Of a stretch of 12,599 nucleotides of DNA, positions 5,090-12,491 are shown piece by piece. Below the pieces are notes generated by a model. The model saw nothing but the letters and a program-made list of their open reading frames with translations. It did no database searches and had not been told where the DNA came from. Source of the DNA: an archaeon (lineage in GTDB: Archaea; Iainarchaeota; Iainarchaeia; Iainarchaeales; Iainarchaeaceae); contig JBBSVV010000010.1 of assembly GCA_038046625.1 (NCBI GenBank), positions 1-12,599 on the forward strand, written 5' to 3'. Positions within the stretch are counted from its first letter, which is position 1, and the number at the start of each line of letters is the position of its first letter. Made by a program: the position numbers and the translations under genes.

Positions 5090-5311
5090 TCAAAGCAGTT
5101 TCAGGAATTCTTCCCTTGAAAGCCCGGTTTGTTTCAGGATGGAAAGCAAGGTACCTGGGACAATAACAATGTGGTTCGGGACAACCGCCCTCCTGAATGG
5201 CTCCTTACTTTCCCTTAGAATGAAATGCCCGCCGGTCTGATGGTCAACCTCGAACCCAGCTTTTTTCAAGGCCTTTATCACTTTGATGCCCGACAGAACC
5301 GGCAGTTTCAT
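5090..5311 (-). CDS. hicA: HicA-family toxin (mRNA interferase)
   Basis: MKLPVLSGIKVIKALKKAGFEVDHQTGGHFIL...VVPNH...GTLLSILKQTGLSREEFLKLL is the typical HicA pattern with the conserved His (GGH instead of GSH). Likely start is ATG 5311 (73 aa); the listed ORF starts at 5329. Confidence 0.9.
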   Translation of the reverse strand: MKLPVLSGIKVIKALKKAGFEVDHQTGGHFILRESKEPFRRAVVPNHIVIVPGTLLSILKQTGLSREEFLKLL

Positions 5312-5361
5312 CAAAACCACTAAATCCAAAAAAACTGAAAATAAAAGAAACCGGAATAATG

Positions 5362-5589
5362 TCAGGCTACCGAAACGGCATCGATTTCCACTTTTCTTTT
5401 GAACACTTTTTCTTCAGGATGTTTTTTTATGCTCTCCAAATAACCCTTGATTGCGTCTTTAATGTTCTTGAGAGCCTGAGCCCTTGTCTTGCCCTGGGAA
5501 ACGCATCCGGGCAGAGCCGGGATCTCGGCAACATACCAGCCTGTTTCTGCATCCTTGGCCAAAACAACTTTGTACTCCATATAAACCAT
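5362..5589 (-). CDS. hicB: HicB-family antitoxin (short form, no obvious DNA-binding domain)
   Basis: YKVVL..D.ETGWYVAEIPALPGCVSQGKTRAQALKNIKDAIKGYLE is the HicB core. It lies directly upstream of hicA on the same strand. Start is 5589 or 5580. Confidence 0.9.
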   Translation of the reverse strand: MVYMEYKVVLAKDAETGWYVAEIPALPGCVSQGKTRAQALKNIKDAIKGYLESIKKHPEEKVFKRKVEIDAVSVA

Positions 5590-5644: not shown

Positions 5645-5705
5645 GGCTGCCTGAATAGCGGGTTATAGACAGCGTCATTTTTGGTTACTGTCCGTTGTAG
5701 AAGTT

Positions 5706-6248
5706 CTACTCTCGGTAACCTTTTACCGATACAATTTTTGCACCTTCCAATAAATAGTCATCCAAATATTGCCCTCCAAATGTCTCGTTTGTTTTGTACT
5801 GTGGTATTTTTGTTGTATTGCTAAGGTCAAATATGAATGAAAAATTTATACGCATTTTCTCTCCAATTGTTCCGTCTGAGGAAATGTTTTGCTTATAAGC
5901 ACTTAGTTCGGGAACCACTGGGTTGGAGCCACAATATAAGTAATTGATATTTTCACCTGTAGATTGACCCATATGGCATAGATAACTTCTAATATCATTT
6001 CCTTCAGTTGTGAATATCCACCCATTCTTGTTTTTGTGTGAAGGGAACACAAGGAATCTTCCTCCAGTTTGTCCTTCATGTATTTCATAGTTTTCTAAAC
6101 CATAGTATTGCAATGTTTCTTCATTAGAAGATGCTTGCTCAGGGGCAATTCCGGAATTAAGTTGTTGAGTACCATCTGGTTGATTTGGCTGGGTACTAAT
6201 GCATCCAAAAAATAAAAATAAAACTACTAAGTAAAATGCCGACTTCAT
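5706..6248 (-). CDS. Putative lipoprotein of unknown function (cassette passenger, 180 aa)
   Basis: The listed ORF 5706..6410 wrongly extends into the tRNA. Best start is ATG 6248, giving the signal peptide and lipobox MKSAFYLVVLFLFFGC followed by a Gln/Pro linker. A BRE/TATA-like CAAAAGCTTAAAG lies about 23 nt upstream. Confidence 0.75.
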   Translation of the reverse strand: MKSAFYLVVLFLFFGCISTQPNQPDGTQQLNSGIAPEQASSNEETLQYYGLENYEIHEGQTGGRFLVFPSHKNKNGWIFTTEGNDIRSYLCHMGQSTGENINYLYCGSNPVVPELSAYKQNISSDGTIGEKMRINFSFIFDLSNTTKIPQYKTNETFGGQYLDDYLLEGAKIVSVKGYRE

Positions 6249-6271
6249 TGTTGCATTATGCAAATATGCTA

Positions 6272-6284
6272 CTTTAAGCTTTTG
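6272..6284 (-). promoter_or_regulatory. BRE/TATA candidate for the cassette lipoprotein (leaderless)
   Basis: Minus strand CAAAAGCTTAAAG, 23 nt before ATG 6248. Confidence 0.45.
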
Positions 6285-6367
6285 CATTATTATACTCATC
6301 CAACGATTTAAGAAATTACGTAAAAGAATGCTCCAAATCCAACAATGTCTATAACCCGCTGCCTGAA

Positions 6368-6486
6368 TAGCCCCGCCCGGATTCGAACCGGGGTCTCGAC
6401 CTTGCTCCATTCTTCTTAATTTTTAAATCAAAAATCAACTTTAGAATCCCAGAGGGTCGAATCCTTGGCCACTAGACGACGGGGCT
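6368..6486 (-). tRNA. tRNA-Gln(CUG) with a 46-nt intron at position 37/38
   Basis: Minus strand AGCCCCG TC GTCTAGTGGCCAAGGAT T CGACC CT CTG G [intron] A GGTCG AGAC CCCGG TTCGAAT CCGGG CGGGGCT A. All stems pair, the A1-U72 pair is typical of archaeal tRNA-Gln, and CCA is not encoded. Exon 1 is 6449-6486; exon 2 is 6368-6402. Confidence 0.96.
6403..6448 (-). other. tRNA intron with a canonical bulge-helix-bulge motif
   Basis: Intron G-ATTCT-AAAGTTGATTTTTGATTTAAAAATTAAGA-AGAAT-GGAG-CA. Exon CUCU pairs with intron GGAG (4-bp central helix), 3-nt bulges are GG|G and CA|A, the outer helix is ATTCT/AGAAT, and there is an inner hairpin TTGATTTTT/AAAAATTAA. Confidence 0.92.
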
Positions 6487-7421
6487 ACTAAAACGTTCTT
6501 ATTAGCATCAGTTAACTTGGCTAATTTGACTGGATGCCTGAAATTAATCAATCTGGCAAACTTTAAAACACTATCCTTAGAGCGCAGTTCCACGGTATAT
6601 AAGGGAAGGAATTTCTCCGCTTTAAGCCATTGCCCGAACTTCGTTTCAATCCCAATAGAATTTAGCAACAATCTCACTTGGTCAATTATAACCTTGCTGG
6701 TACTAGCATACTTGACATAGCCTCTTTTAGTTATTGTTCCATCAGTGTCAAACAAGCCCTGCAAAAAAGCTTTTTTGACTTCAATAGCCGTTGAATCTAA
6801 TAGATTTTGAGGAACAAATATCCTGCTGCTCTTGAACCCATTGCAAACTCCAAAATAGCTTCTCAAAAACCAATGAAATACTTTGGAACAACACAATGAA
6901 ACATAACAATGCTCACTGGAAAGACGATGTATTTGGACTAAATCCAATTCCTTTCTAATTATACTGTCATAGAGTGCTCGATGCTCTAAATTATCAAAAA
7001 ACACTGCAACTCTCCAGTTACCTTTTTCATTTGAAATATTTCCTGCAAGAGAGCCATCACCAAGAATCACACCCACACAATAAGCCAAGTCAGGCGAAAT
7101 CTCTTTTGGAAACCTTAATTTATGCGGAGAATACTTGCAGCTTAGAAAAATTTCCTTTGAATCTATTCTTTGAACCATTTCCTTACGAAAATTCTCATTA
7201 CAAAGATTGAGAGTTTTATTTAAGTTCGCAAGAGAAATTGGCCTTCTGCCAAGTGTCCATTCCTTGGAAGCGTGATAACTTACCCCAATCAAACGTGACA
7301 CTTTTGGCGCTCCGCCTAACCTCAAAGCAATATCTTTTACTTCGGGAGCAATTCCATGCAACATTACATCGTTTTTTAGCCAATCAGACGGAGCATCAAA
7401 AATCGATAGTGAATTCTGCAT
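6441..7421 (-). CDS. Free-standing double-motif LAGLIDADG (DOD-type) homing endonuclease-like protein with an N-terminal HTH-like segment
   Basis: Two LAGLIDADG motifs, LAYCVGVILGDGSL and FLQGLFDTDGTI, and the DOD-type tail F..LINFRHPVK. HTH-like segment GGAPKVSRLIGVSYHASKEWTLGRRPIS. No intein splicing motifs. Start is ATG 7421 (TATA 22 nt upstream, 326 aa) or TTG 7481 (SD AGGTGG, 346 aa). Confidence 0.88.
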   Translation of the reverse strand: MQNSLSIFDAPSDWLKNDVMLHGIAPEVKDIALRLGGAPKVSRLIGVSYHASKEWTLGRRPISLANLNKTLNLCNENFRKEMVQRIDSKEIFLSCKYSPHKLRFPKEISPDLAYCVGVILGDGSLAGNISNEKGNWRVAVFFDNLEHRALYDSIIRKELDLVQIHRLSSEHCYVSLCCSKVFHWFLRSYFGVCNGFKSSRIFVPQNLLDSTAIEVKKAFLQGLFDTDGTITKRGYVKYASTSKVIIDQVRLLLNSIGIETKFGQWLKAEKFLPLYTVELRSKDSVLKFARLINFRHPVKLAKLTDANKNVLVAPSSSGQGFDPLGF

Positions 7422-7442
7422 GCAAGAATCACGCTTTGCGCG

Positions 7443-7457
7443 CTTTAAATAACTTTG
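7443..7457 (-). promoter_or_regulatory. BRE/TATA candidate for the LAGLIDADG gene (possibly also driving the tRNA)
   Basis: Minus strand CAAAGTTATTTAAAG; TTTAAA ends 22 nt before ATG 7421. Confidence 0.5.
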
Positions 7458-7477
7458 AGGGTTCATTGCCGGTGCGC

Positions 7478-7621
7478 TCAAACAACCACCTGAGCAAAAG
7501 TATAGCCGGCAAAAAATATTGCCGTATGAGAGCCGAAATCAATCAAACGCTCATCTGCTGTCAGCATATATAGCCCAAACGGAGCAACGCAAATCAAAGC
7601 CATGAAAAAGAAGGGAATCAT
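7478..7621 (-). CDS. 47-aa hydrophobic micro-protein (not in the ORF track)
   Basis: MIPFFFMALICVAPFGLYMLTADERLIDFGSHTAIFFAGYTFAQVVV*. The ATG overlaps the upstream stop (TAATG) and is preceded by SD-like GGAGGGG. Two hydrophobic stretches. Confidence 0.55.
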   Translation of the reverse strand: MIPFFFMALICVAPFGLYMLTADERLIDFGSHTAIFFAGYTFAQVVV

Positions 7622-7737
7622 TACAAATCCCCTCCAAACTGACTGAGAATCCAGATTTCCCTGTCAGAGAGAAACTCTGAATCTATTTCCTGGATTGCTT
7701 CCAGTTCTTCTATTGTTGGAATTTTGATTTGAACCAT
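7621..7737 (-). CDS. 38-aa acidic micro-protein (not in the ORF track)
   Basis: MVQIKIPTIEELEAIQEIDSEFLSDREIWILSQFGGDL*. Strong SD GGAGGTG (7745-7751) 7 nt upstream of the ATG. Confidence 0.6.
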   Translation of the reverse strand: MVQIKIPTIEELEAIQEIDSEFLSDREIWILSQFGGDL

Positions 7738-7744
7738 TCTTTGC

Positions 7745-7887
7745 CACCTCCGAAAAGAATGAATTTTTTCCGAAGACGGCTTGGGGCTTTCGCAGGCATT
7801 AAATCCTTTGCACCAAAAGCAAAGGTTCAGACGTGCGAAGGTTTAAGCCGAGAATGCCTAGACGTAGGAAAAAATTCGGCGGAGGTG
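7745..7887. ncRNA. Candidate structured RNA or structured leader, family unknown
   Basis: Complementary pairs: 7745-7752/7880-7887 (8 bp), 7761-7771/7867-7877 (11 bp), 7777-7782/7845-7850, 7789-7794/7834-7839, 7805-7811/7819-7825 (7 bp), plus a crossing pair 7794-7800/7853-7859 (7 bp). Confidence 0.55.
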
Positions 7888-7919
7888 TACTAGCTAGAAG
7901 TAAATCAAATTAGAAAAAA

Positions 7920-8147
7920 CTATATTTTTTGCCCTGGCATTTGCCATCGCATATTAGAGTTCAACTTTTGGCGTTCCAGTTCCCTTTCATCCATAAATTT
8001 ACCTAAAAAAGCAAACACACCTATGGAGAGTAAAATGCTTCCAGCTAGCATAGGAATTGAATCTGGTTGTGTGATGAGAAAACCGCCTATAATGGCAAAC
8101 GCTATTGAGGCAGCATATGGATTATCAATATTTTTTGGAAATTCCAT
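7920..8147 (-). CDS. Small two-helix membrane protein, unknown function
   Basis: 75 aa with two hydrophobic segments and a charged tail. AT-rich, with TTTAAAAA about 25 nt upstream of the ATG. Confidence 0.65.
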   Translation of the reverse strand: MEFPKNIDNPYAASIAFAIIGGFLITQPDSIPMLAGSILLSIGVFAFLGKFMDERELERQKLNSNMRWQMPGQKI

Positions 8148-8236
8148 AGTATTACACTATTCAAATAAAATTTTTAAATTCTACTTTTGGCGGCTTTGCT
8201 AAGCCTTATTAACCAAAAAAGCCCTTAGTTTTGCGT

Positions 8237-9248: not shown

Positions 9249-9371
9249 TTTTTCACCTCCAAAAAAGCAATATAGAGATTGACGCCCTGCAGCTTTATAA
9301 TTTTGACCATTTAGGAAGGATTAAAAAAAGTAACACCCATTATTCGTTGATTGACGAAGTGTGTGTTTGTG

Positions 9372-10832
9372 ATGCCTCGAAAAGCCATTTTTGATTCGGA
9401 AAGAACAGCCGAAATGCTCGGCTGGGCAATCTACAGGCCAAAAAACAAGGTAAAAACGGTTTCTGAAAACGAATTGAGGGAGATTGCAGAGCTTGAAAAC
9501 TCCGAAAGGCTCTACATTGTGAAGAGGCTGCCCGAACTGAGTTCAGCGGAGGCAGAACTCGCCGCTGAAATTACGCGCAGGTTCCTTGAATCAAAAGGAA
9601 AGAGGCGCGAAACAACACTGAAGCAGGAAATGGAGGAGCACTGCAGAAGCCTGAACATCATTCTTGACGAAAGGCAGCGGCAATACATGCCAATTCTTCT
9701 ACATAATTGTGTTGCGGCTGCGGGAATCCTTTCCGAATTGCTCCAAGATGAAAACCTCGAGGAAATAGCGGTTACCGGAACAGGAAAAGCAAAACCGATT
9801 TTTGTTTTCGATTCGAGCTTTGGGTGGCTCGCAACCAACATTTACTTCTCCAGCGCGGACAAGGTTAGGCAGGTCGCGAACGCAATGGCATCGCACACAG
9901 GAAGAAGGATTACAATGCAGAAGCCATCACTGAACGCCGTCCTGAATGACGGCTCAAGAATGAACGCGTGCATCGAGCCTGCCGCATTCACGGGACCGAC
10001 AATAACAATAAGGAAGTTCAGGAAGAGCAGGTTCACGCCCTCCAATCTTATTTCTTTGGGGAGCGTCGGGGCCGAAGAAATGGCTTTGCTCTGGATGGCG
10101 ATGCAGAGCGACTGCTCAATACTGGTTTGCGGCAACACCGGCTCTGGAAAAACCACCCTGCTGAATTCTCTCCTGAACTTCGTGCCAAAAAACGAGAGGA
10201 TTGTTTCCGTGGAGGAAACGCCCGAAATAGTTGTTCCGCATCCGCATTTCGTGAAGCTCAGCACGGTTGATGGAATCGAGATAGGCATGCAGGAACTCAT
10301 AGTGAATACGCTCAGAATGAGGCCGGACAGGGTAATTGTGGGAGAAGTCAGGGAAAAAGGCGAGGCAAAGGCATTCATGGACACAATACTCGCGGGCCAG
10401 GGAAAGGGCACTTACGCAACTTTTCATGCACAGTCCGCCCTTGAAGCGGTCGCAAGGTTGCGGGCATTAGGAATACTCGAAATTGATGCCGCATCCATAG
10501 ACCTCATAGTGACGCAGAAAAGATGGACGGAAAAACATGGCGCCAATTTTCTGGAGCGGAGGGCGCTTGTCGAAATATGCGAACCGCAAATCGTGAAAGG
10601 CGGGCTTTCGCTCAACAGGCTTTTTTCGGCGCACGGGTTCGGGAAAAAAGAAAAAGGAATTGTGCGCAAAAGTTCGCGCGTGAATGAAAAAATATGCAGG
10701 ACTTTCGGCCTCGCGCCTGACGGAATCCGGAAAGAGATATCAAAAAGGGCGGAGTTCCTGAACAAAATTTCCGGAAAAAACTGGGGAGAATACCTTGATG
10801 AAATCAATGGATACTGCAATTCGGAAACTTGA
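9372..10832 (+). CDS. Type II/IV secretion system / type IV pilus assembly ATPase (VirB11/CpaF/TadA/ArlI family)
   Basis: LLQDENLEEI, ITIRKF, Walker A GNTGSGKT, Asp box VSVEETPE, LRMRPDRVIVGEVR (Walker B) and His box TFHA. The start is uncertain (9351, 9372 or 9414). Confidence 0.92.
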   Translation: MPRKAIFDSERTAEMLGWAIYRPKNKVKTVSENELREIAELENSERLYIVKRLPELSSAEAELAAEITRRFLESKGKRRETTLKQEMEEHCRSLNIILDERQRQYMPILLHNCVAAAGILSELLQDENLEEIAVTGTGKAKPIFVFDSSFGWLATNIYFSSADKVRQVANAMASHTGRRITMQKPSLNAVLNDGSRMNACIEPAAFTGPTITIRKFRKSRFTPSNLISLGSVGAEEMALLWMAMQSDCSILVCGNTGSGKTTLLNSLLNFVPKNERIVSVEETPEIVVPHPHFVKLSTVDGIEIGMQELIVNTLRMRPDRVIVGEVREKGEAKAFMDTILAGQGKGTYATFHAQSALEAVARLRALGILEIDAASIDLIVTQKRWTEKHGANFLERRALVEICEPQIVKGGLSLNRLFSAHGFGKKEKGIVRKSSRVNEKICRTFGLAPDGIRKEISKRAEFLNKISGKNWGEYLDEINGYCNSET

Positions 10833-11601
10833 ACAGGATTTGCTCTCACTCGGGGAAAAAAAACCCGTAAAGGGATACCTTGCGGGCGCCGCAAAAATTT
10901 CTGTGCTCGCATTCATTCTCGCGTGGCTGTTGTGGAACCTGTTTTTTTCCGCGCCGGTTGAAGGGATTGCATTCTCCGCGCTCTGCGGCACGTGCGCATT
11001 CGTTTTTATTTTTGGCAGGCCCAAAGCGCGGCTTGAAAGGAAGGCAAGGTTGATTGAAAAGCACCTGCCTTTTGCACTGATGCAGCTGAGTGTGGAGCTC
11101 AACATCGGGATTCCGTTCGAAAAGGCGCTTTCCTCGATTGCCGAATCAGATTATGGCGTCCTTTCAATTGAACTCAAAAGGGCGCTTATAGAGTCAAGGT
11201 CCGGCGTTTCAGTGACGGAAGCCCTTGCCAGGATGTGCGAAAGGAACCGCTCGAGGCTCTTGTCAAGGAGCGTTGCGCAGCTCGCCTCCATTTATGAGAA
11301 GGGCGGAAAGAAGGAACCCGGAGAGGCCATAAGGAGCCTTGCAAAGGAACTGCTTTCCAGGCAAAAGGCGGAGGCAAAGGAATTCTACGGAAAAGCCGCG
11401 GTTTACTCGCTCGCATTCATCGTGGTTTCCGCCATTGTTCCTGCGCTGTTCCAGGCATTTGTAATGGTTGGAAGCAGCTTCATGGAAACGGGCTTTGAGC
11501 CGGAACAAGTGCTTCTGATTGTTGCATTATTATTCCCGCTGACGGACGCGCTTCTCCTTTTCTCCATAAAGGCGAGGATGCCGGAATCCATGAGGCAGTG
11601 A
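10807..11601 (+). CDS. Type II secretion system F domain (TadB/TadC-like) membrane platform protein
   Basis: IEKHLPFALMQLSVELNIGIPFEKAL...ELKRALIESRSGVSVTEAL pattern and four hydrophobic helices. Overlaps the ATPase 3' end; start is 10795-10807. Confidence 0.88.
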   Translation: MDTAIRKLEQDLLSLGEKKPVKGYLAGAAKISVLAFILAWLLWNLFFSAPVEGIAFSALCGTCAFVFIFGRPKARLERKARLIEKHLPFALMQLSVELNIGIPFEKALSSIAESDYGVLSIELKRALIESRSGVSVTEALARMCERNRSRLLSRSVAQLASIYEKGGKKEPGEAIRSLAKELLSRQKAEAKEFYGKAAVYSLAFIVVSAIVPALFQAFVMVGSSFMETGFEPEQVLLIVALLFPLTDALLLFSIKARMPESMRQ

Positions 11602-12491
11602 AAATGGGAAAAAAAGAGTTTGCGGAAATTCTTGGCGCAATAAACTACGGCGGCGGGCTTAGGGGTTTTCTGGGCTTATCGGTTTTTCTGGGGGCGGCAC
11701 TTTCTTTGGCCGTGCTTTACCTTGGATTGTTCGTGCTGAAAAGTGAAAAGGTAAGTGTGGCCTCGGTTCTGGCTTTTTTTGCGCCCCTTGTGCTGAACTA
11801 TTTTTACTGCCTGCATTTGTTCGAGCAGAGGAAAAAATCCATTGAGGATGCGGTTCCTGACATGTTGCTGCTCGCCTCCTCGATTCCGGAGGGAACGAGG
11901 CAGGACAAGACGCTGGGCTTCATGGCAACGCACTCGCCGAGCCCGCTGAGGGAAGAGTTTTCGGCGGCGGAAAGGGAAGTGGAAGCCGGAATGCCACTTG
12001 AACAGGCATTTGAAAAAATAAAGGCGCGGAACAAATCCGCTTCGCTTTCAAGGGCGATTGATTTGATAACGAATTCATTTATTTTGGGAGGAAAGATGCA
12101 GAGCATTTTCCGTGAAACCGCAGAGGACTTCATGGAAACCAACGCAATCATCAGGGAGAGAACAGCCAACGCGGCAATTGAGAAGTACACTCTTTTGTTT
12201 GCAGGGGGATTAGTGGTGCCACTCATACTCGGCCTTGTTTCGGGAATGGTTTCAGGCCTCGATTTTTTGGCCGCTTCCGGAATCGGCATCGGAGCAGGGG
12301 AAGAAGCGCGGAAAAAGCTTTTTGATTACGCGCTCCTCGGGAACGTCATTTACATCATTGAATACGCGGTGATTGCCTCGGCTTTCGTTGCCTTCACGGA
12401 GAACCAACAGCGGAAAGCTGTTGTGTACGCATTCTTCCTTGTTCCGTGCGGGCTGGTTGTGTATTTCCTCGGGAGCGGGTTTTCATTGTAA
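11598..12491 (+). CDS. Second type II secretion system F domain (TadC-like) membrane protein
   Basis: IEDAVPDMLLLASS...PLREEFSAAEREVEAGMPLEQAF pattern. GTGA start/stop overlap with the previous gene; multiple TM helices. Confidence 0.88.
   Translation: MKMGKKEFAEILGAINYGGGLRGFLGLSVFLGAALSLAVLYLGLFVLKSEKVSVASVLAFFAPLVLNYFYCLHLFEQRKKSIEDAVPDMLLLASSIPEGTRQDKTLGFMATHSPSPLREEFSAAEREVEAGMPLEQAFEKIKARNKSASLSRAIDLITNSFILGGKMQSIFRETAEDFMETNAIIRERTANAAIEKYTLLFAGGLVVPLILGLVSGMVSGLDFLAASGIGIGAGEEARKKLFDYALLGNVIYIIEYAVIASAFVAFTENQQRKAVVYAFFLVPCGLVVYFLGSGFSL

Follow-up and report, generated by a model that had tools for sequence, protein, structure and literature searches.

The window, that is the whole stretch of 12,599 nucleotides analysed here, lies on contig C10 of an archaeal genome of 986 kb, which is about 85% complete. 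Its probable lineage is Iainarchaeota (DPANN), a label borne by several of the closest ArdC relatives of its kin. On its plus strand, a fold-back rod occupies positions 7745-7887. This strand is both the better folder and the template of an operon read on the minus strand. Downstream of the rod, the order is a 38-aa ORF, a 47-aa ORF, a 346-aa LAGLIDADG ORF and a tRNA-Gln(CUG) gene. The 38-aa acidic leader (7621-7737, minus strand) starts with the ATG at 7737 and carries in its final codons the Shine-Dalgarno (SD) sequence of the next ORF; it gave no Pfam match above the cut-off and no NCBIfam match. The 47-aa ORF (7478-7621, minus strand) is hydrophobic, overlaps the leader stop with its start and has no Pfam match. 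The 346-aa ORF (6441-7481, minus strand) encodes a free-standing two-motif LAGLIDADG endonuclease (PF14528, E 1.4e-15), with the motifs VILGDGSL and GLFDTDGTI. The second SD and start codon, where the leader ORF ends, lie under a hairpin of 10 pairs with a U-tract (7610-7635, minus strand), which could enforce translational coupling or attenuation. A conserved APAMNP-like peptide motif opens many of the endonuclease ORFs (here 7464-7481, minus strand), even where the preceding frame differs.

The endonuclease ORF enters the tRNA-Gln(CUG) gene (6368-6486, minus strand; Rfam tRNA, 42.6 bits), and its stop codon is located inside the 46-nt tRNA intron. The CUG anticodon was read by hand and agrees with the same-genus allele; ARAGORN, run with a relaxed score, called the gene Glu. 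The intron is at the canonical position 37/38 here (6368-6486) and in the D-arm region in the same-genus allele (L396:961-1078). This tRNA gene is presumed to be the homing target of the endonuclease. The same-genus genome lacks a segment that extends from about 6590 to 8195 and comprises the hairpin and most of the endonuclease gene. What it retains directly upstream of tRNA-Gln is a stretch of about 100 bp from the 3' end of this gene (6487-6590 versus L396:1080-1190). A TATA-like TTAA in the remnant precedes the tRNA by about 30 nt, so that the endonuclease gene probably contains the tRNA-Gln promoter.

The 3' end of tRNA-Gln also carries a 700-bp insertion (5646-6371) with a lipoprotein-like ORF and no transposase. 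It has perfect terminal inverted repeats of 12 bp, and its boundaries are marked by a direct repeat of 14 bp (5646-5659 / 6358-6371) that shares the last 4 bases of the tRNA; the same-genus genome shows the empty site. In target choice and repeat length, the insertion presumably resembles casposons. The window further contains a HicA-HicB toxin-antitoxin pair (5090-5589) and, at 9351-12491, genes for a type IV pilus/T2SSE ATPase and two platform-like membrane proteins.

A conserved fold-back rod with a TATA-like core

The first-pass annotation had described six complementary segment pairs in the element, which were all found again. The outermost one joins CACCTCCG (7745-7752) to CGGAGGTG (7880-7887), followed inward by an 11-bp pair (7761-7771 / 7867-7877). 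As had been proposed, the outer stem pairs with an SD sequence, which precedes the ATG at 7737 and occupies 7751-7745 of the minus strand. Folding is far stronger than in shuffled controls: z is -5.14 (plus) and -5.27 (minus) as RNA, and -5.04 (plus) and -3.56 (minus) as DNA, in each case better than 200/200 shuffles.

The topology first assigned to these segments has to be revised. The long stem 7777-7794/7834-7850 and the 7-bp hairpin do occur in the RNA minimum-energy fold of this copy, but they are not conserved: across 34 aligned copies, this fold is paired at 62.6%, compared to 61.7% after column shuffling. The crossing pair AGGCATT (7794-7800) / AATGCCT (7853-7859), taken as a sign of a pseudoknot, reaches 59.2% versus 60.2% in shuffles of the 34 copies, 487/500 of which were as high. 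A multi-stem, pseudoknotted, ribozyme-like topology was rejected, since neither the crossing helix nor the long stem is conserved in homologues. The motif AGACG is indeed present three times (7774, 7829 and 7860); judged by eye, the triple does not recur in the aligned homologues. An Rfam scan, covering ribozyme, riboswitch and sRNA families, returned 0 matches in 7745-7887 at E up to 5.

The covariation that had been called for is present, for a different fold. This is an unbranched rod in which GGC-A-TTAAA-T-CCTTTGCAC (7795-7813) pairs with GTGCGAAGG-TTTAA-GCC (7833-7849); for this copy, the DNA minimum-energy fold is the same. A 34-copy MAFFT alignment is paired at 95.7% (0/500 shuffles as high). 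By BLAST, the region is present in 25/61 genomes. A covariance model finds four strong copies in this genome and matches in 56/151 genomes of the order and 61/151 of the phylum, with up to 16 model matches per genome, some of which are the reverse strand of the same copy. Out of 100 loci searched with this model, 98 matched at E 1e-9. In these 98 distinct sequences, aligned to the model, 96.3% of 2829 cells are paired (95.7% in the plain MAFFT alignment of 34 copies, which was not fitted to the model), and double-sided changes occur at 22/29 pairs; none of 500 shuffles reached this pairing, and all slid controls were far lower. Owing to a poor alignment of its 3' side, the SD stem P1 is missing from the model; folds of single copies show it. 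The element is one of a conserved hairpin family of about 150 bases in DPANN archaea.

Reading inward from the base of the rod, P1 and P2 are followed by a large loop with unequal sides. Next come a stem of variable, covarying sequence and a small loop rich in purines. GGC/GCC then leads, past a bulged A, to TTAAA/TTTAA; beyond another bulged base, the rod finishes with a short stem and an apex that varies. The 5' arm of P1 (7745-7752) is the complement of the SD GGAGGTG on the minus strand and pairs with 7880-7887. The 5' arm of P2 (7761-7771) is a T-run whose partner is an A-run (7867-7877); together they form the duplex predicted just past the start site. The 3' arm (7867-7887) is a copy of the leader and SD sequence with no gene after it. 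The asymmetric internal loop (7771-7783; unpaired columns 47-60 of the family alignment) lies, by hand mapping, at a distance of 20-32 nt from the TATA-like box, counting from its first T. It would cover the region where melting and the start of transcription are predicted (about 7776-7771, minus strand). The apical loop (7814-7832) is variable; in relatives, but not in this copy, C-GNA-G triloops often cap small hairpins there.

The core of the rod is TATA-like. A box, TTTAAT (7798-7803, minus strand), faces the operon and is near-invariant in the 93 anchored copies. On the plus strand it reads ATTAAA, with an invariant bulged A at 7798 and a bulged base at 7804. In a rebuilt TATA duplex, the non-template strand would come from its partner arm TTTAA (7842-7846, plus strand). 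No variation is seen at the A-T-T-A and T-T-A-A positions in the 93 anchored copies, where they doubled as anchors; in the model-based alignment, the five pairs are kept in 97-98 of 98, and the adjoining pairs covary. TTTAA is the TATA-like word of this genome, with a peak 28-30 nt before the start codons of 917 ORFs and a TATA-to-ATG spacing of 27-32 nt. Using a scoring matrix made from 221 TATA-like sites among 1216 ORFs, the flanks of the operon-facing arm score 2.6 in this copy and 1.5 on average in the family, compared to 1.3 for genome promoters and -0.4 for background. The outward arm (7842-7846 side) has a family mean of -2.4, below background. The melting region is only 40% A+T in the family, versus 71% in genome promoters. 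The core is not of the sigma-70 type. An SD followed by an ORF of at least 25 aa is found after 109/114 copies. The 3' arm contains an SD-like motif in 93/114 copies, and an ORF of at least 60 aa follows it in only 6/114.

The wobble pairs favour the plus strand, as the first-pass annotation had noted. The template strand is the better folder in 90/98 sequences as DNA and in 86/98 as RNA. In arm-to-arm alignments of 93 copies, scored blind to wobble, the isolated mismatches on the template strand are 46 G.T versus 16 A.C. After clustering, they are 39 versus 12 at 85% identity and 12 versus 5 at 75% identity, the latter not significant (p 0.14). A structure selected on the mRNA strand is not borne out: outside P1 the template counts are 39 G.T versus 8 A.C, and within P1 they are neutral (7 versus 8). 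In 90 distinct apical regions, C-GNA-G triloops occur on the template strand in 20/90 and on the other strand in 1/90 (shuffles, 4.6 +/- 2.1). The strand and triloop counts overstate the bias because related copies are not independent. With a 3-bp stem, these triloops number 12/93 versus 0, alongside 8 GNRA loops and 4 cUNCGg loops on the coding strand. Some GNA triloops are cUNCGg tetraloops on the opposite strand (8/93, with 2-bp stems). GNRA tetraloops are present in 12/93 copies; the copy studied here has neither a GNA triloop nor a GNRA loop. According to one report, the stability of GNA mini-hairpins is far greater in DNA than in RNA, and they are found in ssiA and in the phage N4 promoter (PMC13037366).

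Genes downstream of the hairpin and transfer modules

LAGLIDADG-like ORFs follow 83/114 copies according to a profile built from the 52 Pfam-positive ORFs (52/113 by Pfam), its weakest matches possibly arising through helix-turn-helix parts. ArdC follows 7/114 copies. A restriction methylase operon, PemK, PIN and NUMOD3 proteins follow one copy each, and in the remaining 20 or so of the 114 the downstream ORF is incomplete or without class. At least two unrelated leader-peptide families are found after the same hairpin in the 114 loci, by pattern PxxEEI...DRELWIL (54) and KVSxRGNPF (25), and in several copies the SD opens directly onto a long ORF. At 42/114 loci, the ORF end and a tRNA gene on either strand are no more than about 110 nt apart; this is a hand count with relaxed ARAGORN, and many loci are too short. 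At G000:C49 (L023) and L006, the hairpin and endonuclease adjoin an N-terminal LonB-like ORF instead of a tRNA. On contigs C3, C4, C7, C21 and C32 of G000, T-rich hairpin repeats stand immediately upstream of several tRNA genes. With a crude ORF caller, the upstream gene points inward at 63 and outward at 46 of 109 classifiable loci; here it points inward.

The association with ArdC was also searched in reverse. Among 215 genomes, 13 ArdC genes were found, ten of which have the hairpin upstream in template orientation. Of the 13, six were not first found through the hairpin: three have it, one lies at a contig end and two are without it. Since the idea of a single-stranded-DNA (ssDNA) promoter predated this finding, the ArdC association serves as a test of it.

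Modules with VirB4 and PrgI are present within 20 kb in 4/14 extended loci, two of which also contain a pilin gene (Pfam). Integrases and restriction cargo are common in the extended loci, and tyrosine integrases are near most ArdC loci. Integrated elements (L139-L152, L246-L253) carry a VirB2-like pilin, PrgI, VirB4, a tyrosine integrase and restriction cargo; no relaxase or coupling protein was recognised in their scanned ORFs. At L147:7738-12776, in a PrgI and VirB4 element, the hairpin stands ahead of two DNA methylases, with an Alw26I-like restriction enzyme on the opposite strand. This gene order fits entry, as methylation would have to come before cutting.

VirB4-like ATPases were detected in 35/215 genomes, including the same-genus genome, and in 11/22 genomes of the family of this archaeon; VirB4 and DprA were not found in the present, 85%-complete genome. 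In another family (f21), the hairpin is present in 16/16 genomes and VirB4 in 1/23. ComEC was found in 0/215 genomes. Near the ArdC loci, no relaxase was found in the scanned ORFs, and no oriT. PF13814 (Replic_Relax) exceeded its cut-off in 1/215 genomes; the other relaxase families were sought in the scanned locus ORFs only.

Candidate functions of the rod

The first-pass annotation took the element for a real, undescribed structured part of a mobile element, and this part of it stands; the TATA-like core and the downstream endonuclease operon had been overlooked. In its list of functions, an ssDNA structure is now the best supported, although not with a multi-stem or pseudoknotted shape. For the features observed directly, namely the covarying rod, the template-strand preference, the TATA-like core and the downstream gene classes, the best explanation is that the template strand folds back as DNA into an Frpo-like ssDNA promoter for the archaeal TATA machinery, a reading that stands about evenly between right and wrong. 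The cassette would reach the recipient in single-stranded form, probably via the type IV secretion elements of these archaea. The strand would then fold, rebuilding the BRE/TATA duplex with -10 to +2 open as the internal loop, and the arm copying the leader and SD would provide duplex past the start site. TBP, TFB and RNA polymerase would run down the 5' arm and exit at the hairpin base into the leader ORF, and the endonuclease would be expressed by translational coupling (ArdC, methylase or RadC in other elements). After second-strand synthesis, the G+C-rich melting region would hold the promoter weak. For a homing endonuclease, the outcome would be a pulse of cutting while the recipient target is still empty. 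Some activity from duplex DNA is possible, given that the operon-facing arm scores 1.5 versus 1.3 for promoters and the prospective non-template arm -2.4. In its widest form, the proposal is of a first ssDNA promoter for TBP/TFB, originating from DPANN conjugative elements and captured by a large family of homing endonucleases of tRNA and intein sites, which would cut only on arrival; this we advance tentatively, with somewhat less than even confidence.

The control might instead reside in the mRNA, as for T4-type endonucleases. A duplex promoter at TTTAAT (7803-7798) would produce a short-leader mRNA, and read-through mRNA would fold the rod, hide the SD and block endonuclease translation. 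This is unlikely overall, yet the same layout is described for I-TevI, segB and mobE (PMC2988022). The inner arm scores like an ordinary promoter, P1 lies over the SD without template bias (7 G.T versus 8 A.C), and the minus strand folds well as RNA (z -5.27). It is less easily reconciled with a rod core that favours the template strand, and read-through is not expected at 46/109 loci because the upstream gene, according to the crude ORF caller, faces away. Moreover, hiding an SD needs no 60-bp rod, invariant TATA partner or fixed bulges. T4-type control is compatible with the ssDNA promoter and could run alongside it, the latter acting together with an SD lock on stray read-through RNA.

The strand and triloop evidence applies equally to a template-strand DNA structure with another role: a second-strand priming signal, an attC-like recombinase site, or a cruciform that switches a duplex promoter with supercoiling or with single-strandedness during homing repair. 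Such a role, which we judge improbable, agrees with the tyrosine integrases near most ArdC loci and with the fixed extrahelical bases that attC sites share with this rod. Frpo, too, is reported to have a priming role (PMC12672017). A constant promoter-like orientation and spacing before an SD and ORF (109/114) is nevertheless not what these roles call for. Boxes of the attC consensus (RYYYAAC/GTTRRRY) are not at the rod base, and the rod is internal, not terminal, in the segment that the same-genus allele lacks. For a cruciform, a bias to one strand is unexpected, as both strands would have to fold. Slightly more doubtful still is a plus-strand ncRNA directed against the operon, as an antisense repressor or a decoy for TBP or another protein. 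The plus-strand bias for G.U and purine-purine, the GNRA loops (12/93) and the plus-strand RNA fold (z -5.14) would suit it. However, the sole portion complementary to the predicted mRNA is tied up in P1/P2, G.U cells make up about 2% of pairs (57/2829), which seems low for a functional RNA, GNA triloops are commoner than GNRA loops, and by eye no conserved plus-strand promoter was seen in the leader ORF region. A divergent duplex promoter pair or a palindromic operator, with covariation resulting from arm-to-arm conversion, is very improbable. TTTAA does face outward on both strands, each time followed by GAAAAAA and an SD-like motif. The outward SD, though, leads to an ORF of at least 60 aa in 6/114 copies only, the outward promoter score is under background, and neither arrangement predicts strand-biased wobbles or fixed bulges. 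The divergent pair was rejected because most copies have no outward gene.

The ssDNA promoter reading can be compared with known systems, as described in the reports cited. Frpo/ssi ssDNA promoters belong to the leading regions of F, ColIb-P9 and pESBL (PMC9849209, PMC12672017, PMC11541004, PMC13478746), and Frpo-type promoters in bacteria precede anti-defence, methylase and toxin-antitoxin genes (PMC11541004). The rod resembles them as a long imperfect template-strand hairpin with putative promoter elements in its stem, repeated before anti-restriction, methylase and toxin-antitoxin genes. It differs in its archaeal host, in a TATA-type core instead of -35/-10 boxes and in that most copies are on chromosomal homing-endonuclease cassettes, not plasmids. 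Frpo/ssi lie on the transferred strand in the leading region near oriT; of the extended archaeal loci, 4/14 have type IV secretion modules, and no relaxase or oriT was found. On account of its TATA-type core, the element is classed as Frpo-like in its presumed working and not as a member of Frpo.

The T4-type hairpins (I-TevI/II/III, segB, Aeh1 mobE) likewise stand over the SD of a homing endonuclease with a promoter inside, but they are short RNA hairpins of the coding strand, while the rod, about 150 nt long, has its bias towards the template strand and is found before ArdC and methylases as well (PMC2988022). EGeRS1 of the pLS20-family plasmids is, like the rod, a repeated structured sequence before ardC and other establishment genes, and it blocks read-through (PMC8708921). 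Unlike the rod, it is 400-750 bp long and branched, with no promoter found inside. An ssDNA promoter was rejected by the authors on the ground that transfer involves the non-template strand; as this case illustrates, structured leaders before ardC need not be ssDNA promoters (PMC8708921). The phage N4 vRNAP promoters and RSF1010 ssiA share with the rod the GNA-triloop DNA mini-hairpins in single-stranded signals, but there the triloop hairpin is the signal, whereas the apex of the rod is variable and its TATA-like stem conserved (PMC13037366).

A search of the literature (indexed records, with subscription journals partly covered) returned no archaeal ssDNA promoter and no account of this hairpin family, and the string 'archae' is absent from the leading-region papers PMC13478746 and PMC11541004. 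Promoters firing on newly arrived single-stranded DNA were found in print for bacterial plasmids only. If the ssDNA promoter reading is true, an initiation machinery of eukaryote-like type is able to begin transcription on single-stranded DNA that has folded. To our knowledge, ssDNA promoters have been shown only for the bacterial sigma-factor polymerase and for phage N4. DPANN chromosomal DNA would then also travel between cells single-stranded, by a route without a recognised relaxase or ComEC, and the hairpin would mark the genes moving as single strands in an uncultured lineage. It would also suggest how homing endonucleases, toxic as they are, can be kept silent in a resident genome and become active in a recipient. 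Should T4-type control be true instead, the hairpins would still be a family of regulatory elements not described before, with as many as 16 model matches in one genome.

Hairpins of similar layout outside the family

Five records with the labels Nanoarchaeota, Woesearchaeota or Methanosarcinales also have a hairpin of like layout before ArdC, and metagenome contigs have one before RadC, ArdC or an endonuclease-like ORF. A pattern scan of metagenomes gave 118 stretches, nine of which have the full layout; the other 109 were dropped as chance since the full layout is missing. The exact core pattern had 0 matches in viral contigs, and model R1 found nothing better than E 0.2 on 14 further ArdC loci.

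The Nanoarchaeota-type hairpins have a 3' arm AAG-NN-TTAAG and a T.T mismatch in the template arm, and they show covariation. The invariance of TCTCTTAT and TTAAG in their 12-row alignment is not evidence, because the search pattern fixed both in 8/12 rows. A model made from these hairpins (R2) does not match the present element and so gives no support to a homology of the two types. It does match in 5/151 genomes of the other phylum, four of them new. Of the two new ones inspected, one stands before ArdC and one is apparently decayed; the genome of the former has a second R2 match, with the core and no clear gene.
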